Shown here piece by piece: positions 29,497 through 64,000 of a DNA stretch of 64,000 nucleotides. How positions within the stretch are numbered: position 1 is the first letter of the stretch; every line of letters begins with the position of its first letter. Origin of the DNA: Cetorhinus maximus. Lineage: Eukaryota. Below the pieces are notes generated by a model that was given only the letters and a program-made list of their open reading frames with translations, was not told the origin of the DNA and searched no databases. A program made the translations under genes and the position numbers. The stretch spans positions 48,050,001-48,114,000 of the forward strand of contig NC_135898.1 in NCBI RefSeq assembly GCF_964194155.1, written 5' to 3'.

Positions 29497-31420
29497 TGAA
29501 AAAAGAGACATGCTATTGAAACTTTTTGTCTTGCACTCATCAGGACAAACGTATAAATTAGAAGCAGGAGTAGGCCACTTGGCCCATTGAGTCATTCAAT
29601 AAGATCATGGCTGATCTGACTGTAACCTCAGCCCCACATTCCTGTCTACCTCCAATAACCTTTCACCCTTTTGTCAATCAAGAATCTATATAGCTCTGCC
29701 TTAAAAATATTCAAAGACTCCGCTTCCACCATCTTTTGAGGAAGAGAGTTCCAAAGACTCTCAACTCCCTGAGAGACAAAAAAATTCTCCTCATCGCTGT
29801 CTTAAATGAGCGACCCCTTATTTTTAAACAGTGACCCCTAGTTCTAGATTCTCCCACACGAGGAAATATCCTCTCTGCATCCATCCTGTCAAGACCCCTC
29901 AGGATCTTAAAGATTTCAATCAAGTCGCCTCTTAATCTTCTAAATTCCAGTGGACACAAGCCTAACCTGTCCAATCTTTCCTCGTAAGACAACGTGCCCA
30001 TTCCTGGTATTAGTCGAGTAAGCTTTCTCCGAACTGCTTCTAATGTATTTACACCTTTCCTTATATGAGGAGACCAGTACTGTACACAATACTCCAGATG
30101 TGGCCTCACCAGTGCCCTGTACAACTGAAGCATAACATCCCTACTTTTGTAATCAATACCCCTCACAATAAATGATAACATTCTATTAGCTTTCCCAATT
30201 ACTTGCTGTACCTGCATACTAGCCTTTTGTGATTCATGCACTAGGACACCCAGATCCCTCTGAATCTCAGGGCTCTGGAATCTCTCACCATTTAGATAAT
30301 AAGCTTCTTTTTTATTCTTCCTGCCAAAATGAACAATTTCACATTTTCCCACATTACCCTCCATTTGCCAGATCTTTGCCCACTCACTTAACCTATCTAT
30401 GTCACTTTGTAGCCTCCTTATGTCCTCTTCACAATTTACCTTCCTTCCTATCTTTTCGTCGTCAGCAAATTTAGCCACCATTCCTTCTGTCCCTTCATCC
30501 AAGTCATTTATGTAAATTGTAAAAAGTTGAGGACCCAGCACTGATCCCTGTGGCACACCACTCATCACATCCTGCCAGCCAGAAAAAGACCTATTTATGC
30601 CAACTCTCTGCTTCCTGTCAGATAGCCAATGTTCTATCCATGCCAACATTTTACATCCTACACCATGAGCATTTATTTTTTGTAATAACCTTTGATGTGG
30701 CACTTTATCAAATGTCTTCTGGAAATCTAAGTACAGTACGTCCACCAGTTCCCCTTTATCCACAGCACATGTGACTCCTTCAAAGATCTCCAATACATTG
30801 GTTAAACATGATTACCCTTTCACAAAACCATATTGACTCTGCCTGATTGCCTTAAATTTTTCTAAGTGCCCTGTTAAGGCATCTTTAATAATAACTTCTA
30901 ACATTTTCCCTATGACAGACGTTAAGTTAATTGACCTGTAGTTTCCTGCTTTCTGTCTCCCTCCCTTTTTGAATAAAGGAGTTACATTTGCTATTTTCCA
31001 ATCTAATAATTTTGGAAAACTAAAACCAATGCATCAACTATCTCACAATTCAAAAGATACCAAATCTCAAAAGGAACAATTTATACTGCATGAGAAAAGG
31101 GTGCTGATTGGTTGGAAAATGGAGTCTGATTGGTAGAGGTGTTGCCATGGAGAATACTCAAGGGAACAGTTAACTGCCAAGCTGTGTTTAAATTCAAACC
31201 AGGCAGATCAACTCTGGTTGGTCAAGACATTTCCATGGGGAATGAACCAGGAAATGGCTGTCCCCAAGCTTTTGTTTAGTTGAAAAAGGCACAGTGTGTG
31301 GACATGTTCTTTCTGTTTGCAAAGGACAGAGCCCTGTATGTGAATATATGTAGCTTCTAGCATGCATAACTGAACCACATTGCAAGCCAACTGATAATCT
31401 TAAATTGGTTGTCACTGTTA
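29497..31420 (-). mobile_element. Penelope-type non-autonomous element (29497-29555 and 31050-31420) split by a CR1
   Basis: Minus-strand GTCCTGATGAGTGCAAGACAAAAAGTTTCA is a degenerate minimal hammerhead of the type found at PLE ends. Related sequence appears to resume after the CR1. Confidence 0.5.
29557..31047 (-). mobile_element. CR1 LINE, 5'-truncated, 360-aa RT ORF
   Basis: ORF 29711-30793: YLDFQKTFDKVPH, SGVPQGSVLGP, KFADD, LVRPHLEY. Confidence 0.95.
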
Positions 31421-38204: not shown

Positions 38205-38635
38205 GCTCGCTGACTTTCTCTCTTTGATCTCACTGTCTCTCTCTCTCTGCTCTTTGTCTTTCTCTCTCCTCCATCACTCTCTCTCTCCACTCTCACTGTC
38301 TCTCTCTCTCTTCTCTCTCTCTCTCCTCTCTCACTATCTCTCTGTCTTCTCTCTGCTCTCACTTTCTATCTCTGCCCTCTGACTGTCTGTGTCTCTCCTC
38401 TCTCACTGTCTCCTCCCTCTCTGCTCTCACTGACTCTCCTCCCCTCACTGTCTCTCCCCCGTCACTCTCCTCTCACTGTCTTCCGCTCTCCACTGTCACT
38501 GTCTCTATCTCCTCTCTCATTGTCTCTTTCTCTCTGCTCTCACTGTCTCTGTCTCTGCTGTCATTGCCTCCCTCTCACTGCTCTCACTCTCTCCACTCTC
38601 ACTGTCCCTCTCTCTCTCTCCTCTCACTGTCCCTC
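38205..38635 (+). repeat. CT-rich (ctctcactgt-type) low-complexity array, left part
   Basis: Directly visible. Confidence 0.9.
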
Positions 38636-40660
38636 TTTGATAAAGTGCCACAGCAAAGGTTATTGCAGAAAATAAAAGCTCATGATATAGGGAGTAACAT
38701 ATTGGCATGGATAGAAGATTGGCTGGCTACCAGGAAGCAGAGAGTAGGCATAAATGGGTCTTTTTCAGGTTGGCAAAATGTAACAAGTGATGTGCCACAG
38801 GGGTCAGTGCTGGGACCTCAGCTGTTTACAATTTATGTAAATGACTTAGATGAAGGGATGGATGGAATGGGTGCTAAATTTGCTGATGACACAAAGATAG
38901 CTAGGAAAGTAAGTTCTGAAGAGGAGGCCATAAAAAGATATATATAGACTAAGTGAGCGGGCAAAGATTTGGCAAATGTAATATCATGTGGGTGTTATGG
39001 CACAGCTGATGGCAAATGCTGAATTGTTCAAATCCCAAAGGGAAACTTTAAACAACTGCCACAACTTGATTTATAATTTGTATAAATTTCGAGATGTATG
39101 CCCTAAATTCAGTAGTAATAAGACTACCAAGTCTTATAGATTTTTACAAAACTAGATTAAACATTTATTAATAGAAGAAATGACTTTAAAATACATACAT
39201 AGATCTAAGAATTACTGCTATGATAACTTCTAAGTCCCCTACTTAATCTGATTCCCAGTTACACCTTTGTTAAGGCAACAGTAAGACACACAATTTTAGA
39301 AGATCCAGGAAAAGTAAACAATACCCTGAACAGTCGAATTCAAAGTGAGTTCTCTTAACTTCAGTCGTTGAAGGCAGCAGTTTGGTACATACAGGCTGAA
39401 GGCATTTCACACTTGTTGAATCTTAGACTTCCTTGCCTTCGTTCATTTATACATATTTTCCCCTTTGAATGCAAATACCCACTGTTTCATTGTCTTTGGG
39501 CATCTTCCTGATAATAAAAATCTCTCATAGCACTAAGTTTACCAGTAATCTTTGGGAAAAATAAGTAAACACTATTTCTTACTACTTCTGCTGGCTAAGT
39601 ATCCATTACACCCCCACTTTTGAATTCAAGCCACACCACTTTTGTTTAAATAATTCAAGTTTCACCCTTTACACTTCACATTTTAAAACTTCCCCATGTT
39701 TACCTAATTAAGACTTCAAACCTAACTTCTCTTCTTTTTCAAAGCACCCAGACTAGCTGCCTCTAATTCTATTAAGTCTCACACAGACACATATAGACAC
39801 AGACTCTATTTTACAATAAATTCCAATAACACCATGGACATTATTATATCTTCCTGAGAGGTGGAAAAAGGTGAAGTTGTACATTTTGGCAGGAAGAATA
39901 AAAGAGAAGCGTATTATCTAATTGGTGAGAGATTGCAGAGCTCTGAGGTACAGAGGGATCTGGGTGTCCTAGTGCGTGAATCACAAAAGGCTAGTATGCA
40001 GGTACAGCAAGTAATTAGGAAAGCTAATAGAATGTTATCATTTATTGCGAGGGGAATTGAATACAAAAGTAGAGAGGTTATGCTTCAGTTGTACAGGGCA
40101 CTGGTAACATCACATCTGGAGTACTGCGTACAGTATTGGTCACCTTATGTAAGGAAGGATGTTACTGCATTAGAAGCAGTTCAAAGAAGGTTTGCCAGAC
40201 TAATACCTGGAATGGGTGGGTTGTCTTATGAAGAAAGATTGGACAGACTATGCTTGTATCCACTGGAGTTTAGAAGAGTAAGAGGTGACTTGATTGAAGC
40301 ATGTAAGATCCTGAGGGGTCTTGACAGGGTGGAAGTGAAGAAGATGTTTCCTCTTATGGGAGAATTTAGAACTAGGGGTCACTGTTTAAAAATAAGGGAT
40401 CACCTATTTAAAACAGAGATGAGGTAACATTTTTTCACTCAGATGGTCATGAGTCTTTGGAACCCTCTTCCTGAAAAGGTAGTGGAAGCAGAATCTTTGA
40501 ATATTTGTATGGTAGAGGTGGATAGATTCTTGGTAAGCAAGGGGGTGATAGGTAATCGAGGTTAGGTGGAATGCAGATTTCACTATCAGATCAGTCATGA
40601 TCTCATTAAATGGTGGAGCAGGCTTGAGGGGCTAAATGGCCTACTCCTTGTTCAAATGTT
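38636..40660 (+). mobile_element. CR1 LINE (5'-truncated) interrupted by a solo LTR
   Basis: FDKVPQQRLLQKI...VPQGSVLGP...KFADDTK, then ORF 39861-40427. Very similar to the 29557-31047 copy but in the opposite orientation. Confidence 0.9.
38993..39859 (-). mobile_element. Solo LTR nested in CR1
   Basis: Starts tgttatgg, ends ttcctgaga (degenerate ...TGACA), and cleanly interrupts the CR1 RT. Shares a ctgaatttag motif region with the 34549-35283 LTR. Confidence 0.65.
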
Positions 40661-40669
40661 CGTCTGTTT

Positions 40670-42540
40670 GGTCTCATTGTCTCCCTCTCTCTCCACTCTC
40701 ACTGTCTTTCTCTCTGCTCTCACTGTCTCTCTCCTTTCAATGTCTCTCTCTCTCTCTCTCCACTGCCACTGTCTCTCTCTCCTCTTTCACTGTCTCTTTG
40801 TCTGCTGTCATTGCCTCCTTCTCGCTCTCTCTACATCTCCACTCTCACTGTCTCCCTCCCTCTCCACTCTCATTCTCTCTCTCTCCTCTCTCACTGTCTC
40901 TCTCTCTCTCTGCTCTCACTCTCTCTCTCTCTCTGCGCTCACTCTCTCTCTGCTCTCACTGTCTCTCTCTCTCCGCTCTCACTGTCACTCTCTCCTCTCT
41001 CACTGTCTCTCTCTCTCTGCTCTCACTCTCTCTCTCTCTGCTCTCACTCTCTCTCTCTCTCTGCTCTCACTCTCTCTCTGCTCGCACTGTCTCTCTCTCT
41101 CCGCTCTCACTGTCACTCTCTACACTCTCTCTGTCTCTCTCCCTCTGCTCTCATTGAGTCTCTCCATTCTCACTGTTTCTCTCTCTCTCTCTCTCCACTC
41201 TCTCTCTCTCTGCTCTCACTGTCTCTCTCTTTCCTCTCTCACTGTCTCTCTCCATGTCTCTTTCCTCTCTCTCCGCTCTCACTGACTCTCTCTCCACTGT
41301 CACTGCCTCTCTCTCCTCTCTCACAGTCTCTCTCCTCTCACTGTCTCTCTGTTTCCACTCTCACTGACTCACTCTCTGCTCTCACTCTCTCCTCTCTCAC
41401 TGTCTCTGTCACTCTGCTTTCGCTGTGTCTCTCTCTCCGCTCTCACTGTCTCTCTCTGCTCTCACTGTTACTGTCTTTCTCTCTCCTCTCTCACTGTCCC
41501 TGTCCCTCCACTCTTACTGTCTCTCTCTCTCTCTCCACTCTCACTCTCTCCTCTTTCACTGTCTCTATCCCTGTCTGTCTCCTCTCTCTCCCTGCTCTCA
41601 TTCTCTCTCTCTCTGCACTCACTGTCTCTCTCTCTGTTCTGTCTCTGTCCACCCTCACTGTCTCTCTCTCTCCACTCTCACTGTCACTCTCTCCACTCTC
41701 ACTGTCTCTCTGTGTCTGCTCTCATTGAGTCTCTCCATTCTCACTGTCTCTCTCTCCACTCTCTGTCTGTCTTTCTGCTCTCACTGTCTCTCTCTCTCTC
41801 CCCCCTCACTGTCTCTCCCTCCGCTTTCATTGAGTCTCTCCATTCTCACTGTCTCTCTGCTCTCACTGTCTCTCTCTCTCTTTCCATGTCTCTCTTCCCT
41901 CTCGCTCTCTCTGCTCTCACTGACTCTCCACTGTCACTGCCTCTCTTTCCTCTCTCACTTTCTCTGTATCTCTGCTCTTCAATGTCTCTTTCTCTCTCTC
42001 CACCCTCACTGTGTCTCTCTCCGTTCTGACTGTCCCTCTCTCTCCATCCTCACTGTCTCTCTTTCCATTCTGACTGTCTCTCTCTCTCCACTCTCACTGT
42101 GTCTTTCTCTGCTCTCACCATCTCTCTCTCTCTTTCGCAGATGCTCTTCTCTCTTGCTCACCCTCTCCTTTCTTGCTGACTCGCTTTCACTGACTCTCTC
42201 TCGCTGACTTTCTCTCTCTCTTGCTGGCTCTTTCTCTCCCTCATTGCCTCTCACTCTCACTGTTTCTCCCTTTCTTGCTGACTGTCTCTCGTGACTCTCT
42301 TCTCTCGCTGTTTCTCCCTCTCTCGTTAACGCTCTCTCTCTCATGACTCTTCTCTCATCGAATCTCTCTCGATGAACCATTGCTGACTATCTCCTAAATC
42401 GCTAACTCTCTCCTGCTGACTCTCCTCTCTTGCTGATTCTCTCTCTGAATCTCTCTCTGTCTCACTCTCTGCTCTCTCAATGCCTCTCTGTCTTGTTGAC
42501 TCTCCCCTCTCCCGCTGACTCTGCCTCTCCCGCTGACTCT
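40670..42540 (+). repeat. CT-rich low-complexity array, right part
   Basis: About 1.9 kb of (ct)n interspersed with cactgt, ctgctc and ccactc motifs. Confidence 0.95.
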
Positions 42541-47735: not shown

Positions 47736-48001
47736 TTTATTTGTTGAAGAAGAGGAAACTTCTCTGCTCCAACCATTGTATTTGGTTTCACATCTGCCAG
47801 AGCGTATGGAAATGTTCACAGATTGCACTGTTAAATGCTTTATGATTTACCTGTTTGTTTTGCACTTTCTTTACTTTCAATGCTTATATCTTTGTTGAAA
47901 GGAATATTCACTGTTAACTGGAAAAGTCCATCAGAGTCCGTGCTTGTGGTTGCTGACTTTATGATTATGGTATTTGACTGTACCTTTTGCTTCATGTACA
48001 G

Positions 48002-48015
48002 GTGCGTGCCCTTAG
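48002..48015 (+). CDS. RBP4: RBP4 terminal coding exon (G-A-C-P-stop)
   Basis: Polypyrimidine acceptor ccttttgcttcatgtacag|GT GCG TGC CCT TAG. Phase 1 matches the previous exon and supplies the sixth conserved Cys. AATAAA follows at 48170. Total CDS 591 bp. Confidence 0.85.
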
Positions 48016-48169
48016 ATCCACTGGATTATTGTAACTTTGGCAAAGGCTGTGACTGCAAACATCAGTCTGCAGCACTGCACCAGGACCAGCTTTCGTCACC
48101 TTGTGAATATATTTTTCTAAAACTCGCATTTTAAATACAAGCGGATTTCCAGTCATGTATTGCTCTTCC

Positions 48170-48175
48170 AATAAA
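48170..48175 (+). terminator. RBP4: RBP4 polyadenylation signal
   Basis: AATAAA about 155 nt after the stop, followed by GT/T-rich sequence. Confidence 0.7.
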
Positions 48176-48212
48176 GTTATGACAAACATTTGTGTATAAA
48201 TATTCTTACAGT

Positions 48213-48218
48213 TTTAAT
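48213..48218 (-). terminator. FFAR4: Candidate FFAR4 polyadenylation signal (ATTAAA)
   Basis: First AATAAA/ATTAAA hexamer found on the minus strand downstream of the FFAR4 stop. Confidence 0.4.
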
Positions 48219-48663
48219 TGTTGAATCAATTTTGTGGGTCTGGCCAACTATAGAAGGAAGACAAATGTTTAGTAAAAGAACCGTATCATTTTTTTACATT
48301 GTCACAGAATGTGATATCAGGATGGTAGAAGGCAAACCACATCATCTTTTTTCATCTTGCAATCCTAGCTTCCCATATGAGTTGTGTCGGGAGTTGTCAG
48401 ATCTGCCATTAATTAATTTGTATTAATCCTGCAGCAAAAGTGTCACAAAGAACAATCTCCTTTAGTGCCGTACAGATTTAACAAGAGTAAAGAAAAACTT
48501 AAAGCACCAAACACAATACACACAACAATTTGTGCCTTTGGGGTCCATGTGACTATTATACTGCACCTTGTTTTCCCACCTAAATACATAATCAGAATCC
48601 CTTGATCCAGTCATATAAATTTACTCTATGAAGTTCCTTTTCTATATTTCCCTTGTTGAAAAT

Positions 48664-49074
48664 TTAGCCACAAATAACAGAAGGTGCTGCCTGTGACTCT
48701 TGCCCTCTGACATTTGTATGTGTAAGTTCCGTAGCTCTTTTGTCACTGCTCTTAAAATGGAAGAAACAAAGCACATGTCGCCATTCGCCCCGAAATTGAG
48801 TGGCACCATATAAAATAGGATTCAGAGCTGAGTTGGTGAGTGTAAAGGTACAGACCCAGAAAAACACGGTGGGGGTGAGGAACACCTTTTTAAAGTTCTG
48901 TGCTAGAATCAAGAAGATAATTAGATAAATAGGTGTCCACATGATAAAGAAAGATATCATGAGTATCAGGAGAGTCCGGAAGAGCCAATATTCCTGTTTG
49001 GAAACTCGAATTTGTTGTTGGTCAACTGAACACGTCCTGCTGGCCTGCAATCTTTTGCTGGCGGCTTTGGTAAT
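48664..49074 (-). CDS. FFAR4: Free fatty acid receptor 4, coding exon 3 (ICL3, TM6, TM7, C-tail)
   Basis: cacag|ITKAASKRLQ...QIRVSKQEYWLFRTLLILMISFFIMWTPI...FFWVCTFTLTNSALNPILY...SVICG-stop. 411 bp. Confidence 0.95.
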   Translation of the reverse strand: MTKAASKRLQASRTCSVDQQQIRVSKQEYWLFRTLLILMISFFIMWTPIYLIIFLILAQNFKKVFLTPTVFFWVCTFTLTNSALNPILYGATQFRGEWRHVLCFFHFKSSDKRATELTHTNVRGQESQAAPSVICG

Positions 49075-50566
49075 CTGTGTGTGGAAGAGATCATATAATT
49101 ACACCATCAAAGAGTTAAAGGGAAATCTTACACTCAATGTATGGTTACAAACACTATCCATGTCTTCTCATTCAAATAATGTTATTGACACCAATAGTGT
49201 TATTACAGTTACACTAATATCACAGGTCTTGCAAACAGGGCAACATTGAACAGTGCCACCTCATTCTCATTTGACAAGTCACATTCAATTTCTTCTGAAG
49301 CACAGTGAGTATTCTTAGAATCAAAGGAAACCAAAGTACAGAATGCATGATCATTGTATGATGTGCCTGCATGCCACTGTAATGTAAAGGTGCTCAGCAG
49401 AGCAAGGGTTAACGTGGGGCTGGAGAATAGCACCACCCACAGTATTGGGAATAGAGTCACATGGTAATAGACTGAGAGAACGGTCTAGACAGAAAACTCT
49501 GGAACCAGCCTGCATGCAGGTAACAGCACTATGCATGATACTAGCCTGGGATCTGTAAATAGTTGAAGGTTAACAATAAACTGATCATGTTAAAATATAC
49601 AAGTCTCAAGATTTAATCACTGAGACATCTAAAGAACCCATAATACAACACGGTGACAGCAGTGGGATATCACCACTATCAGCATAGTGCACTGCGGTTG
49701 ACAGTGGTGATCGCTTCTACAAGATGTCACATCAGAGATAGTACCATAATCCGACATGGTGATCCAGAGTGATATGAAAGGTGGCAGCTAGATGCATAAC
49801 CCCAAAACAGCATCACAAGGTATGAAAAACTAGAAGCAACTGAAGCCTAACTAGAGAGATGCGTACCTAAGAAGAAAACTTGAAGAAGCTTCACTACATA
49901 CTTGAAAGTGAGGAATCCATCAGAATGAATGGAATCCATTACAGAAAATTGCAAGAGCCTGAGTGACACAGTTCATGAGATGGTGAGTGAAATGACAAAC
50001 AAATGTAGCTGTACTTACGTTTTAGAATAGGTGGCAGTCTCAAGGGCCCAGCATCCAGAGGGCAGCTGGAAGACAGCTGCAGTTAAAAAAAAGTTTAAAA
50101 GACTGGCAGAGTTAAATAGAGAAGCCTGAAGAGCATAGTAAGAAGAAAAGAAAAAGACTGCAGAGTTTAAGAAAAAATGGCTGCTGCTCTGAAGATTTTT
50201 TTACAATGGCAATCAATGCATAAAGAAGTGCTGTCCCTACAAGTTTTCAAAAAGGTGCCCTGATCGGACCTTGAGCCCATCAAAACTCCCAAAGCATTCA
50301 AAAAAAATGGAACTTGCAGAGTTTGAAAAAAAGAAAAGAAATCACTGCAGTGGCTTTAAAAAAAATGAAAAGTTTAAAAGTTTAAATAAAATGAGGTGGC
50401 CAATCACCATTGAGCCTGCCAAAAGTGCAGGAAATTCACTACAAAGAAAGCCGATAGCTGACGACAGCCTGAATGTAAAAAAAAGGTTACTGTACTCACA
50501 GTCGTAAAGAGGCAATGCAATTTAAAGCTGTAACTACAAGAAAACAACCATGGACAGAAAATTGGA

Positions 50567-50870
50567 AGAGACCCCAGAGTGAGGGCAACTCCACTGAGGC
50601 CAGCAAGATACCCCAGAGAGAGGGCAACTCCACTGAGGGCAAAAGGAGACCCCAGAGCGAGAGGACAACTCCACCGAGGGCAACAAGAGACCCCAGAGAG
50701 AGTGCAACAAAAGACCCCAGAGACATGGAAACAAAAGACCTCAGAGAAAGGGTAACAAAAGACCTCAGAGAGAAGGCAACAAAAGGCGCCAGTGTAGGAG
50801 CAACAAAAGACTCGAGAGTGAGGGCAGCAGAAAACCATAGAGGGAGCCAAAAGACCCCAGGGCGAGGGAG
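50567..50870 (+). repeat. Degenerate 21/33-bp tandem repeats inside the LTR element
   Basis: Recurring gaccccagagagagggcaac and caacaaaagaccccagag units. Confidence 0.7.
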
Positions 50871-50874
50871 ATAG

Positions 50875-51920
50875 ATGGCAGTGCAGAGTGAGCAGATGGC
50901 TATGAATGAAGGAAAGCTATCTGAGGTACCTCAAGCAAAACAAAATGTGCACAAGGTGAATGAAGCTGTTCTACAGGAAAATGTTTGCATCAGAGCTGAA
51001 CTGGAAGATTTGAAATGTAAAATTCAAACTCAGTATATACCTTTGAAAACACACAATAAACTGAAGTCTTCAATGAATCAAGCTGTTCGAGATCTGAACA
51101 AACAAATTTTAGAGATGACACAAAGGCAACAGGAGGAGATAACGACCTTCAATTCCACAGTTAGCAAATCAAAGCAGGAATTTAGAAAACTCAACCAAAT
51201 GTACAGCCAGGCAAAACAGCAGGCAGAAAAGGCATGCAAAGAAATTGTAACCCTGAAAGATTCCTTGAATCATATGTGGCCATGGAAAGACATGAGCTAG
51301 AGGGGATGTTGAATATTACTTGAGAAAAAAGTTGTGTTGGAACTATCAGTAGCAATGAAATGATGCACTAAAGCTCAGATTGAGTTGGCAAGAGGTCAAC
51401 AAGAAAATAAACTTTTGAAAGAACAAGTGATTGACCTTCAAGATCAAATGCAAAAGGAATGAATAACTATTCAGCAACATGAAGAAATGAAGACTGCCGT
51501 AAACAGCAGAATGGAAACATGGCAGAAGAAACTTGAAGCGACTCTATTGAATTACAGGAAAGCTCAAGATGAAGCAAATGAGCTTTGCAAAGAAAAGGAA
51601 AACCTGTTGACAGACCTTCACACGCTACAAAAATTCCTTACGTCAAAGTTTATTCTTCTGGAAAATTACAAAGAGAAGGAAAATGAATTTAACATCACTC
51701 TGATCAAACTGAGGATCCAATTGGCAGAGAAGACTCAGCAATGTTCTATATTCCAGGAGGAAGCTGAAAGCTACAAGAAAGAGACTGAAGAGCTGAAGAA
51801 GCAGTTGAATGGAAAAGAGGAGGCATTGAAAGGAAAAGCCATATAACTTTCTAAACTGTGAGAGCACAATGAAACCATGAGTAGCACAATTACAGAACTG
51901 AAACAAGACTTCACCGGAGA
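50875..51920 (+). pseudogene. Decayed coiled-coil coding segment, UACA/RAI14/ANKRD24-like, inside the LTR element
   Basis: QYIPLKTH, YVAMERHE, ITIQQHEEMK and LLNYRKAQDE...LHTLQ...EKENEFNITLIKLRIQLAEKTQQCSIFQEE...ELKKQL are colinear with the recalled UACA coiled-coil. Several stops and frameshifts. Confidence 0.7.
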
Positions 51921-53456
51921 CAGACCTGGCCAACAGTGAAACCAAAATGATAGACAAGGGCAAAGTTCTGTTGCACACAGAGAAAGTAAAGACAGAAATG
52001 AGATCAGAAAATGTAAATACGACAAGGAACTAGAAGAAGAAAAAGCACTAGATGCCTCAGAACCATTGAGCTGAATTAAAAGATTCGTAAGCTGCAAAAC
52101 AATTTGAAAATAAAACAGCAAATAAATGTTTGGCTGAAATTGTGAAACAAGTGGAAATGAAGCTTCCATTTGCAAAACATCCATGTCAAGCATGAATATG
52201 GCAGACATCATGGAAAAAGAAAATTCGACTCAACTCTAGGAACAAACGGAATGCACATTCCCCTCAGAAGGAACGGGACAAACCCACAGTGTCCAAAAAA
52301 AGGAGACAGCTTGTTAATAAAGAGAAACGCAACTTGAAGGAGCGTAAAAAGCAAATCAAATGGGGATGACCAAGTACCAGAAACACAAAATACCACTACC
52401 ATTCCTTCAAATGTGACAGACTGAGATGTGGAAGAACTGTCAAGACTCAAGACCATCAGATTTACAAAGTCAGAGACTTGAGATGGGGGAGCAGCGATAG
52501 CAAGTAAAGATTGCATTAAAAATTTACTCTGTTGGAAAGGAAAGTTTTCTTTGGAGAAGGGGGGAATTTTGTATGATGTGCCTGCATGTCACTGTAATGT
52601 AAAGTTGCTCAACAGAGCAAGGGTTAACATGGGACTGGAGAATAGAACCTCCCCCCATGGTATGATGTATAGAATCACATGGTAATAGACTGAGAGAACA
52701 GTCTAGAAAGAACACTCTGGAACCAGACTGCAAGGAGGTAACAGCACTATGCATGACAGGAACTATTTACAGATCCCCGGTTAAAGGTTAACCAGAACGG
52801 GTTCACGTTTAAATATACAAGTTTCAAAGTCTCATAATTGAGACATCTAAAGAACCCATAATACAACAATTCTCATTTTTATCAGGCCACACTTACGTTC
52901 CAGTAAGAATTTTTTGGGCTGGAGTAAACTGACTGAAAATCATTTTGGTTGTGCTGACTTAAGCTGTTATGATGGAGCTGATACCCCATATAAATACATG
53001 GCCAGGACTTAAATTTGTGTTGGTTCTACCAATTTTCTCCTCTTCCTTTTACCTCTGCTGATTGCTCACTCAACAAGAAGAGTATCAATGTCAAACCTGA
53101 TCCTGCCCCCACCCAGTGTGCAAACGGACACATTAGTAGCAAAGGCAAACAATGCTTCGCGAGCACAGTAATTGTACTATCTGAGCTGGAAGCTTGGAAA
53201 AATCAGCAGAAAGATGATAATTTCTTTGGACCTGCTGACAACCTAAGAATGACTTTCAAAACTTTTGTTATGTTCCTAGTACACAACTAAATTCTAAAGT
53301 ATAATGTATTTATGCTTTTTGACTTCTAAGCTCACTAAGAAATCCACCACAAAAACCATTCGTCATTAAATTAAACAAGTGTTTTGATAGAAATCTTAGA
53401 TGTCTAAACACTTTAAATGTGACAGGAATTAGGTCAGTTGAATGAATAGCAGACAC

Positions 53457-53585
53457 CTTTAATATCTTTGTGTAATTGATGATAACGATCAACCCTGGAA
53501 TGGCGAAGCTCAGCAGGCCATAGGACACATCCCAGATGATCTCTTGCACAGTACTTGGCCACTCCAGTGTGCAAATCTGACACTC
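53457..53585 (-). CDS. FFAR4: FFAR4 coding exon 2 (ECL2 and TM5)
   Basis: aacag|ECQICTLEWPSTVQEIIWDVSYGLLSFAIPGLIVIINYTKILK|gtgtct. 129 bp, phase 0. Confidence 0.95.
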
Positions 53586-55457
53586 CTGTTTAAACATCAA
53601 AAACAATGCTTTACTTGCAAAGTGGATTTATTCCACTAACCGATGAACCTTAAGATAGACAATGATGAAAAATATTTACATTGAGACTACTATTGGTGCC
53701 GTGCAGCTATAAGCAGGCAAACTCACCTCAGCCTGCATAAGTTAATAATGACTACACTTAATGCAGGGAAGTGAGAAGAATATATTCAATACCAGTAGAT
53801 CACCCATGGTATTACTGATGGATAATCCCAAGACCTGATCTCCAATTTCTGATACTTATTACAGTCTAAACTTGACAGTGGTCTGGTTTCACTGTAATGA
53901 AGTCAATTTATTGAAGCAATTCATCACATGATGAATGGAAAATATGAAATGTTACCAATACCAAAATACACACTCACTGATATGATGCCTATAGCACTTT
54001 TTATTTAATACTTTATAAAATGTATTTAAAAGCAAGCTACATTTCTGTTCTTCCCTCACCAATATTATTTTGTTATTTACATTGTAAAATATATTTCTGC
54101 CGTATCTCCTACAGTGGATTTGAAGTATTTACTGAAAAGTTAAATACCTTTATTTAATTCCTTATTATTTCCTCCTTACTCACCATAAAATTTTCTCAAT
54201 TATTTACATGATTTATAAAAGTTATTGTTTCTCCCACTTCTTTGGGTGGGGTTGCAGTTCTTACTGAAACACCCTGCTGGAGCACTGAATCAAGGAGGTT
54301 TTTCCAGTAACCAGTACTTTAACTCAGTTCACTAACTGCGTGCAGCCTGAATTTAGCACTGAACAGCAATAAATAACTCCCTGTGTTACCACTGCAAATA
54401 TCAGTCCTTTTCAATGACAAGAGAAACCTCAACCAATGGCAACCACTTAAAGATCGCCACGAAAATTGTTTGAGCAATTTGGTTGGTAGGTTTTGTGGTA
54501 CTTAGCACTTGTGAGTGGCAACAGTTGAAAATAAAACAATTTGCTGGCTTTTAGTTTTTCTTACTTGTCCAATGAATGGAACTCAGTTTTTTAGTCTCTT
54601 CACGTTTAGCCAATGAGAGATTTGAGCCAATTAATATAGCTAACATAATCGACAAAGACTATTTGAGCTGATTTTTAGCCTTCAGACATTTTGAGCTATT
54701 CCTTATAAAGCACAAAGAAATATAAGTGAATAGCACATGTAAATTGAAGAGAGACAATTGAATTCATTGTTGAGTTAGGTTGATATTCATCAAACCACTG
54801 TTACTAATTAACCTGTGGGTACTGTTTTGTCATTAGTACCTGGGTAACAGAAGTGCCAGCTAGCAGCAATGATATGTCTTATCAGCTGCACATCAGTCTG
54901 TGTTCTGGCAGAGGTTGGTGTGTATTTAAACACAGGCCTAAAGCTCAAGTCATCAACATCCAAATGCCAGTGACACTTTTAATGTTCCTGGAGAAGTTAC
55001 AGTCCTGTCAGGTCTTTAACATTAAACATGTAAAAACAGCCAAACTACCCACCTAGCATCTTATTGTGGTTCACTTTTATAGTTTAAAAACATGGCTTTA
55101 CACTGGCTGCAATCATGCTGCCAAATTTGAAAGCAGTTTCAATTGTAACATGAACAAAGCTATATTGTTGTTTCTGAATCGATGCAATTTTTACATGTCA
55201 AATCAATGCACAAGCTTCAGAGTTTTATTTTACAATTCAGTGAAACACCTCAGGTTGAATGTGTCTATGAATACTAGTTGTTGTATAACTGTCCTGTTAA
55301 ATCATCTTACAAATAAATATGTTACTGTGTCACTATAGCCAACATGAATGGGGGACAACCAATTGATCCCCAATTAATTCTGGATGGGCTCCTTCATATC
55401 ATAGGCAACAGCATAAGTCTTAGGCCTGAAAAGGGTTAGTCGGGTACTCAGAAACAA

Positions 55458-61653: not shown

Positions 61654-62193
61654 CTCGTCTTTAACATCAATGGTGATCACCTTAAAATACATGCAGAGGG
61701 GCAGAGATGTGAAGGCGGAGAACAGCCAAATGGTCAACACAACTGCTATCACCAACTTGCAATGCAGCGCAGCTCTTAGGCGCATTTGGAGAATGGAGAT
61801 AGACCGCTCGATGCTAATGACAGCTAAAGTGATAATGGTCACACTGCCACTCATGCTCATAACATAGACAAGAGCGTGACACGCAAAGGATCCAAGAGTC
61901 CATGATTCAGTCCAGCGAATGGTGATAATGACTGGAATGACCCCCACGAACACAATGTCTGCCAAGAAGAGATTCAGCACAAAGCACTGAAAATTGACGA
62001 GTTTCTTGCCCTTGAGAATGAGCGCGATCATGCATGCATTGGTCAGCAAGGAGATCAGGAAAACCAACACAAGGACGGCTGTCTCGATGCTGGCAGTGAG
62101 CATTTGGTCGGAGGACCTGAATTGAGAAAAGTACGTGAAAACGGACCCGTTCACCGCTTCGCTTCTGGGTGCATCAAAGAAACGAAATCCCAT
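61654..62193 (-). CDS. FFAR4: FFAR4 coding exon 1 (N-terminus to TM4)
   Basis: Kozak AAGATGG. FTYFSQF...IETAVLVLVFLISLLTN...VLNLFLADIVF...IRWTESWTLG..ACH..YVMSMSGSVTIITLAVISIER, with the fatty-acid-binding Arg in RWTE retained. Donor GAG|gtaaga, 540 bp. Confidence 0.96.
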
Positions 62194-64000
62194 CTTTGGC
62201 TTGCTATGCACAGCGTTATACCTGTGCACAATTCTAGAAGTGAAACCGGCAAATATTGCCTCGGAAGTGACAAAGTTCTTCAGGTCCGTCCTGAATTAAG
62301 ATCAGAAGAGCTGCTCTTTCGATTGGAATCCGGACAGTTTCAACTGATAAATCTACCAACACTGCAGCTCAAAATATCATGAGCACGATTCCCAAGAGTT
62401 TTTTTTAATGGATAATATTTCATATGCTAGTTCTTAGGATATTGCCTTCATGCTAATGCCCAATGAGGAAGTAAAAGTTGAAATAATCATAAATTAACTT
62501 GACAAACAGTGAGTAATCTGTTCATCATATTCATTAAGGATTATGACCCCCGATTGATAAGAGGCCTTTCCCTGGCTCTTACCCATTTAACTAGAGCCGC
62601 CCAGTAACATTTGAATGATGATATAACCCATCAGGACCTGCTTGTATTTATAGTCAAAACTTAACAGCAATAAACCATGAATAAAAGGTCACGGCTTGAA
62701 CTTTTAGAATACATTACAAGATACAAAGACATCCTCAGAGTCTTTCCACGCTCGTTATATCTGTGTTCGTCCTCTTATTGCACTCACTGACTGCATGTGC
62801 AGGACATTAGCCCGTATATGGCAGGTTGTCCTTGATAAATGTTCCACTGGGGGTGGAAGGGCTTAATTGTAGTTGTATGAATGATCAGTCCGCCTGTCAT
62901 AAAAAATCTCTAGAAGTTCTAGGCATGGGAACTGCAGCCTCAAGATTGGACCTCGCTAATTATGATTGCTTATGAACTCTGCATAAAATTGTGGCTCGGG
63001 CTTCTGACAAGGGTACAGGCCTCGCACAGTAAACATTGTTCAAATCATTTGAAACATAGAAAATGCTATTGCATTGGTTATGTTTATAAATGTTTTATTT
63101 TTAATGTCATTCTTCTGTTACACTCAGCTAATAACTGGTCATCGTTGTGGGAAAATAAGGATGTCAGCCATAGTGATTTGATTCCATCCCTTCCTCCTTC
63201 CTTTTATTGGCAAATTTTGCATGGGTTCATGTTTGGTTTGTTGCTTTAATAAATCCTTAGTAGTTATTCACTCCTCTCTTTTATTTATAATGCCCTACCT
63301 CTAAATGTTGTTGTGTGGCTGATTCAAAAACCATACATTGGCCCTGTGATCTGCATATAATACCTTCATTTTGAGCCAAGGTAACAACTGATTTTTAAAA
63401 AAAATCCCATCAAGTAAATTCCAGGAAAGTCAACAAGTAAAGGGAAAGGGTGAAAATAAACCTAACACTGAAAGTCAATGGTTTGTCTCCCTCGTGAAAA
63501 TTGGATGGAATCGTAGAATGCTAACCCAAAATATTGATAATAAATCTCCAAATCCCCTGCTCCTCTATGACAAGAGAAAATGAAAAGTACTCAGCTCTCT
63601 TGGAATAGAGAGCCTCGGTAACCTCCATTTTGAAACAGACAGCAAACTGGGAGATGCTACAAGTATTGCCAACTCTAAAAGCTGCCCATGCATTAAAGTC
63701 CATCAACACGGTCACATACACAACCACTGCAATGCTGTCCTGGTCCTGCTCTGAATTTGCAGTTATTCCTGCAGCAGGTAGCAGATTTCATTGAGGACCT
63801 CGCTGTCCTTAATGAAGCACCAACATCATACTGTTCCTATCTGAGGTTCTAATGGGAGAATTACTCTCTGAGCACCCTTGGCAGTTATGGCCTCCTGCCG
63901 AAAGCCCTTCTCCCCATCTTTCTCCTTTCTCTTCCAGCAGCTTGTCTGTGTTGCCTCTGCTCATTCGCCTAGTTGCAGGGAAATGCAAACTACTGCATCA

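Follow-up and report, generated by a model that had tools for sequence, protein, structure and literature searches.

We examined 64,000 nt of the Cetorhinus maximus genome (contig NC_135898.1, positions 48,050,001 to 48,114,000; “the window”), in which 49355-52868 is a dead copy of a pol-less, non-autonomous Gypsy-type long terminal repeat (LTR) retrotransposon family (Table 1). Between its LTRs lie remnants of three host coiled-coil genes (UACA, ninein and TPR), which in relatives of this copy follow a Gag start in one frame, and comparison of the copies indicates that selection likely maintained this single chimeric frame as the family spread.

An earlier note, made from the letters of the window alone, had described an LTR element with a tRNA-Leu primer-binding site (PBS), a polypurine tract (PPT) and no pol, and this description holds. 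The LTRs match at 246 of 292 ungapped columns (84%; Kimura two-parameter distance, K2P, 0.18); TG...CA ends, PBS and PPT are all present, as an LTR retrotransposon should have them; and 12 frame readings of the internal region returned no pol domain in Pfam, nor any Pfam match to gag. In copy L136, the PBS agrees with the tRNA-Leu 3' end at 18 of 18 nt. The halves of the target-site duplication (TSD) of the window copy agree at 3 of 5 positions, or at 4 of 5 if the allele that two other organisms carry (runs X5, X14) is used. At family level the TSD is 5 bp, within the 4-6 bp of Gypsy-type elements: of 33 LTR pairs looked at, 22 have intact termini, and 13 of these agree at 4 or 5 of the 5 positions, whereas random pairs do so in 2% of cases.

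Host Genes in the Cargo

The largest piece of the cargo derives from UACA. When read through, 51316-51921 matches shark UACA proteins at 54-63% identity (best E 8e-55), seven of the eight matches being named UACA and one unnamed, so that the protein search called for by the earlier note leads beyond generic coiled coil; Pfam and PDB searches of the cargo returned generic coiled-coil matches only. The host UACA gene (G000:C27) has a 2.7-kb exon whose identity to Carcharodon UACA, 94.7%, marks the host as a lamniform shark; the window cargo corresponds to three blocks of this exon with DNA identities of 77, 79, and 81%. The parent, previously given as UACA/RAI14/ANKRD24-like, is thereby narrowed to UACA; RAI14 and ANKRD24 are out, as all seven named matches are UACA and the host UACA exon agrees at the DNA level. 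In the window this piece carries 102-nt and 450-nt in-frame deletions, five stops and a local frameshift.

The cargo belongs to a multicopy family rather than to a one-off capture, an outcome for which the earlier note had left room. A search of the genome with the cargo gave 40 good matches among 40 scored (82-86%, the window itself aside) and flagged a further 4086 first-look candidates, which were not scored; 127 UACA-bearing loci were checked. UACA lies within 9.5 kb at 15 of 20 loci chosen by LTR and PBS alone, and in 19 of 20 chosen by the gag region, the latter being drawn from top matches and hence biased to close relatives. In all 108 copies compared, the UACA piece falls inside exon nt 858-2419 (the start is at most 8 nt from 859 in 66 copies, and the end at most 8 nt from 2409 in 79), and this confinement to one 1,551-bp exon segment argues for a single UACA capture. 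Median LTR-pair identity in the family is 80-85%. Subfamilies (A, B, and C) are distinguished by their LTRs and by internal deletions of 102, 450, 282, 126, 210, 147/148, and 753 nt. Exact microhomologies of 6-11 nt occur at five of the six internal deletion classes examined, and the gene-to-gene switch points border the linkers.

Two further host genes in the cargo, ninein and TPR, had been overlooked. In relatives, a ninein piece (56% identical to shark ninein, E 3e-26) stands 3' of UACA and is followed by a TPR piece (E 1.5e-42); the host ninein and TPR genes were both located in the genome. Their remnants in the window are short: the ninein remnant has a local alignment score of 66, the best of 500 shuffles reaching 49, and the longer TPR remnant (52094-52171) shows 78% DNA identity to a host TPR exon (tblastn E 7e-7). 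Among TPR-positive loci, 44 of 45 lie outside subfamily A, and most B and C copies retain a TPR piece; in subfamily A, ninein and TPR are each shortened to about 25-40 codons, yet A is widespread. No counterpart of the linker at 50869-50910 was found in the host UACA, TPR, and ninein loci, Pfam or PDB, and no source was found for two linkers in these comparisons. As the UACA and ninein pieces each fall within one exon, neither can reveal intron loss. In copies such as L113 and L119, however, TPR exons separated by about 0.9-2.3 kb in the host gene adjoin directly. The absence of these TPR introns shows that capture was from spliced mRNA; the earlier note had supposed host mRNA as the source.

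Two side observations concern cargo arrangement. A subfamily with rearranged cargo (L115-L118, L120, L124, L125, L128, L218, L219, and L221) carries the 3' tip of the UACA piece ahead of the rest, which suggests a tandem duplication followed by a deletion. At L137:407-9901, a 2.58-kb LTR-plus-internal unit of subfamily A forms a tandem array of units 96-97% alike, without UACA.

Gag and a Pol-Bearing Relative

The design seen in relatives runs from a Gag capsid N-terminal region through UACA, ninein and TPR to a pol tail, and natural stop-free frames cross each junction: four for gag-UACA, four for UACA-ninein, 17 for ninein-TPR, and one, plus L205, for TPR-tail. The ancestral gag-repeat-coiled-coil frame that the earlier note had suspected is thus borne out, with a gag start present in relatives. 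Specifically, an upstream region of about 100 residues is present in 21-22 of 52 A copies and in the majority of those of B and C; it is homologous to the gag start of cargo-less relatives (L258, L260, and L264) and is likely a capsid N-terminal domain (NTD). It gave no Pfam match in cargo copies, PDB profile searches for gag returned nothing meaningful, and its predicted fold (predicted local distance difference test, pLDDT, 53) matched the Ty3 capsid NTD at Z 5.5 (root-mean-square deviation 3.5, 72 aligned), tied with unrelated bundles; the full gag of a relative was predicted at pLDDT 45. In cargo copies gag breaks off after the N-terminal region and picks up again in the linker just before the zinc knuckle, and the family is without capsid C-terminal region, zinc knuckles, protease, and pol. 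The motif ETPG/ETPERG lies ahead of the zinc knuckles in the full gag of L258 and L264, and is repeated in the natural open reading frame (ORF) L206.

L264 encodes reverse transcriptase (RT), RNase H and integrase in Gypsy order, and has LTR, 5' region, gag start, linker and tail (65-87%), as well as the PBS, in common with the cargo copies. As the window copy lacks pol and this relative has it, the family is a non-autonomous derivative, and from these same two observations we infer that it was probably mobilised in trans. L264 came from the gag search, in which one of 20 loci had RT and integrase ORFs; searches for a helper through integrase families found no resemblance to the element at 30 rve and 30 H2C2 loci, and a PF03732 search found nothing.

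The window copy belongs to a subgroup without the NTD (at least 18 of 52 A copies), in which the same ATG-repeat junction recurs and the ATG is kept in 16 of 18. From ATG to UACA, subfamily A copies are in frame in 7 of 18 and 7 of 14, private indels scrambling the phase.

Other non-autonomous families of the lineage were also noted. L258 and L260 form a sister family with full gag and protease and no RT or integrase, and carry their own coiled-coil-like stretch before the common tail, about 700 bp before the 3' LTR. L031:702-3080, L261, L271, L272, and L276 represent another family of this LTR lineage that has gag and protease; its 3' stretch is a different one, acidic and proline-rich. The gag C-terminal region of the L031 type gave 8113 first-look candidates. 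Such families with other 3' inserts suggest that the lineage took up inserts repeatedly.

Phylogeny and Range

In a tree of 19 natural ORFs the cargo forms one group (93/94), placed at a polytomy with the UACA pairs of Lamniformes and Carcharhiniformes. Grouping of the cargo with host UACA alone is rejected by the approximately unbiased (AU) test (p-AU 0.0003); its other placements relative to the Lamniformes/Carcharhiniformes split are not (p-AU 0.08). A predicted protein of Scyliorhinus torazame has the same UACA-linker-ninein junction and is 58-63% identical to element copies, which places the chimera in a second shark order.

Selection on the Chimeric Frame

To look for selection, each column on the host frame was compared across 52 A, 27 B, and 24 C copies, with five unclassified copies excluded. 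The plain ratio of non-synonymous to synonymous substitution rates (dN/dS) is 0.21-0.35 between subfamilies and 0.57-0.60 for private changes (Nei–Gojobori, NG86); as private changes already reach this value, mutation bias matters. With transitions and transversions stratified, fixed UACA changes are nonetheless depleted in non-synonymous ones relative to private changes (odds ratio 0.43-0.46, p 0.0005-0.004), whether or not 304 CpG-prone positions are included, and they are more conservative (p 0.015). None of the 67-80 UACA fixed changes is a stop (P 0.007-0.023), against 5.5-6% of singletons, the sole majority-stop column in B being a CpG decay site. The gag region behaves similarly (odds ratio 0.35, p 0.004). 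Changes unique to subfamily A comprise 10 synonymous and 18 non-synonymous, compared with 3.55 non-synonymous per synonymous among singletons; they do not stem from host recapture, because B, C, and host agree at those sites. Seven shared deletions keep the frame, with losses of 34-251 codons tolerated, and no frameshift in the cargo is shared among copies bar two junction alignment artefacts, although 234 of 294 private indels shift the frame.

How could such a frame have arisen and spread? In the model that we propose, RT template switches at short shared sequences would have copied pieces of host mRNA into a Gypsy element, in frame with gag, where they would have replaced the capsid C-terminal region, zinc knuckles, protease, and pol. 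An L264-like helper may have supplied Gag-Pol in trans, and the retained capsid N-terminal region may have co-assembled with helper Gag, the host pieces serving as a generic, length-tolerant coiled-coil rod whose host functions would not have been kept. An NTD plus generic rod co-assembling with helper particles would fit best, because gag and UACA are constrained while length is free. That a single frame joins the Gag start to UACA, ninein, and spliced TPR pieces, and that the chimera likely aided spread on helper particles, is the account towards which we lean, with somewhat better than even confidence. The fuller proposition—that the lineage rebuilt its only protein from three host coiled-coil genes and a capsid NTD, and that this protein was selected through several amplification waves and in two shark orders while parasitising helper particles—is offered tentatively, its chances lying a little short of even.

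Several observations weigh against this account. The function is one that we infer, neither chimeric protein nor particle having been observed, and no intact copy was seen among the loci examined. The selection test draws on per-column majorities and on a small sample of 67-80 changes, most of which fall on the branch leading to subfamily A; TPR shows no depletion between B and C (five non-synonymous and one synonymous, p 0.37), and ninein, with zero fixed changes, offers nothing to test. In-frame deletions are weak evidence, as 51-78% of microhomology pairs in the exon are in frame anyway, and the 147-nt deletion class is split 3 to 2 with 148. The capsid assignment draws on leads (atlas 0.91-0.92 to gag-type families; PNMA at E 0.002 for a relative; low-confidence folds). 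Finally, the subgroup of at least 18 of 52 A copies spread after losing the Gag region, so this region was not needed in cis late on.

Competing Explanations

Some of these observations would sit comfortably with a rather unlikely alternative, in which only an open translatable frame mattered (for RNA stability or translation-coupled packaging), the protein itself was jobless, and purine-rich repeats favoured switches between coiled-coil mRNAs. Large variable deletions were tolerated, at microhomologies in most classes, a successful subgroup dropped the Gag region and kept an ATG joined to repeats, and all three donors are A-rich coiled-coil sequence. Yet an open frame as such predicts missing stops and no amino-acid depletion, and what is seen in UACA is the depletion reported above together with conservative fixed changes.

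It is improbable that the cargo was a passive one, i.e., that one chimeric retrocopy hitch-hiked and the selection signal came from few masters, mutation bias, or host-mRNA recapture. B and C differ little, private changes reach their dN/dS from mutation bias, and every copy examined is broken; the signal, however, outlasts both transition/transversion stratification and CpG removal, and shared frameshifts are lacking in a cargo whose private indels mostly shift the frame. TPR acts in nuclear export and ninein at the centrosome, and it is, if anything, still less probable that the captured pieces retained their specific binding and worked as decoys or address tags (e.g., TPR for nuclear export of unspliced RNA, ninein for centrosome steering), since the nuclear-basket, centrosomal and cytoskeletal nature of the donor rods and the retention of TPR in most B and C copies are countered by a subfamily A that trimmed ninein and TPR and still spread, and by a TPR without selection signal.

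Genomic Setting and Feature Map

The element lies antisense in an intron (49075-53456) of a three-exon rhodopsin-family G-protein-coupled receptor (GPCR; 7tm_1) gene on the minus strand (48189-49074, 53457-53588, and 61657-62268), which we take to be FFAR4/GPR120-like; the intronic position follows from a run X21 contig that joins all three exons and leaves the element out. Contigs of two other organisms, about 4% divergent, run from the flanks into both LTRs, and the insertion is therefore older than their split from the host; its two LTRs differ about four times as much (K2P 0.18). Presumed-RNA contigs cover the element and the surrounding intron alike, and so speak neither for nor against expression. 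In runs X14 and X19, from one sample of organism C, contigs (window 47998-54234) cover the last GPCR exon and, without splicing, read on across the element as far as about 54234, cover farther upstream being sparse; they carry neither strand nor level, and an alternative transcript is possible. Elsewhere in the window are LINE reverse-transcriptase fragments (29711-30811, RVT_1; 38228-40427) and a long TC-rich simple repeat (about 40500-42400).

Within the element, three details of the earlier note had to be revised. Its 21/33-bp repeats have real periods of 39 and 24 bp. The LEATEA peptide near 49830 is not supported as gag, because over 49651-50180 copies share stop columns in every frame (9, 14, and 8 of about 173) and the leader has no match to L264. 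LRRNG, read as a pol tail, is outside the cargo frame, the pol-tail match lying elsewhere (Table 1). Tandem units of LTR end plus PBS directly follow the 5' LTR in subfamily A (L063, L132, L144, L149, and window 49651-49710).

TABLE 1. Parts of the LTR element and its target site, in window coordinates.
Feature	Position	Strand	Remarks
Target-site duplication, left half ATCAT	49350..49354	+	right half ATTCT at 52869-52873; decayed
5' LTR	49355..49650	+	family termini TGT[T/A]GTA...TACAACA; decayed, true start may be 49352
tRNA-Leu primer-binding site	49651..49668	+	15/18 nt to tRNA-Leu(TAG/TAA) 3' end of same genome
Subfamily-A leader and A-rich stretch, likely non-coding	49669..50549	+	contains LEATEA peptide
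Second, degenerate PBS-like unit	near 49685-49710	+	in subfamily-A leader; tandem PBS units in other A copies
gag start codon (MDRKLEE) joined straight to repeats	50550..50570	+	capsid N-terminal region deleted in the window's subgroup
Tandem repeats, 39-bp (3.6 copies) and 24-bp (8.2 copies)	50566..50868	+	likely expanded gag linker motif ETPG/ETPERG
Short linker common to all subfamilies	50869..50910	+	
Captured UACA	50911..51903	+	host exon nt 859-1084, 1172-1864, 2298-2409 (about aa 694-1210 of Carcharodon UACA)
Ninein remnant	51990..52063	+	DNA alignment to host ninein exon
TPR remnants	52068..52171	+	aa 342-355 (weak alone) and aa 414-440
3' region common to gag-protease relatives	52186-52343	+	70%; whole 3' block 52186..52512
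pol C-terminal tail	52395-52512	+	71% to pol-bearing L264
Polypurine tract	52553-52566	+	from sequence
3' LTR	52570..52868	+	

Relation to Known Systems and Significance

With its TG...CA LTRs, tRNA-Leu PBS, PPT, 5-bp TSD, and a gag start and pol tail in common with L264, the family resembles Gypsy/Metaviridae elements (presumably Mag-like, a clade name given from motifs only), and differs from autonomous ones in lacking everything from the capsid C-terminal region to pol. Acutely transforming retroviruses are helper-dependent genomes in which an in-frame Gag-host fusion replaces pol. The shark family shares with them this fusion and, probably, the helper dependence; unlike them, it shows no env or retroviral RT, is a germ-line family, and carries structural rods rather than signalling enzymes. 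Domesticated gag-derived genes of the PNMA/Arc type are single, intact, conserved ORFs, unlike the window cargo with its five stops and frameshifts and a family in which stops make up 6% of private changes.

Closest in mechanism are the LTR-mediated retrocopies of animals, as far as excerpts of the literature describe them: partial mRNAs replace an internal part of the ORF through microsimilarity-dependent template switches, with multiple parents and re-retrotransposition (Tan et al., 2016; PMC5131818). The window family likewise has partial host mRNAs between LTRs, missing TPR introns, several parents, and secondary retroposition. The loci of Tan et al. are young and low-copy (15 in Drosophila, 5/7 in zebrafish), and the term “purifying selection” does not appear in the main text (PMC5131818); the shark chimera, by contrast, has become a large and old family, divided into several subfamilies, in which Gag is fused in frame and a selection signal is seen. 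In maize, the LTR element Bs1 holds segments of three host genes that form a new chimeric ORF (PMC13317346; PMC5131818), just as the shark element joins three host genes; Bs1 is low-copy (PMC2774510), and this plant element carries enzyme fragments, whereas the vertebrate family has three coiled-coil rods, 127 checked loci and a range of two shark orders. In a maize survey, under the conditions applied there, none of the LTR elements combined fragments of two or more genes (PMC2774510), and excerpts of PMC9004415 mention neither UACA, ninein, TPR nor sharks. Our literature search, whose scope left out Repbase, Dfam, most subscription journals and supplements, returned nothing on UACA with sharks and LTR retrotransposons, or on this family. 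Relative to known gene capture, the copy number, age, all-coiled-coil cargo, in-frame gag fusion, and selection signal are unusual.

Gene capture by LTR elements is already known, and the animal cases described are rare, young and low-copy. Here, a chimera of captured pieces has grown into a large repeat family, and there is evidence that selection on the stolen coding sequence came from the element and not from the host; if true, a selfish element would have domesticated host genes, the opposite of what happened with Arc and PNMA. Spurious UACA-, ninein-, and TPR-like gene models in shark annotations, of which three examples can be named, are explained by the family as well. The proteins P0130, P0132, and P0141, listed for Cetorhinus maximus and Scyliorhinus torazame as uncharacterized or hypothetical, are element copies. 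The thousands of candidate copies of the family form a dataset for what non-autonomous elements need to encode.

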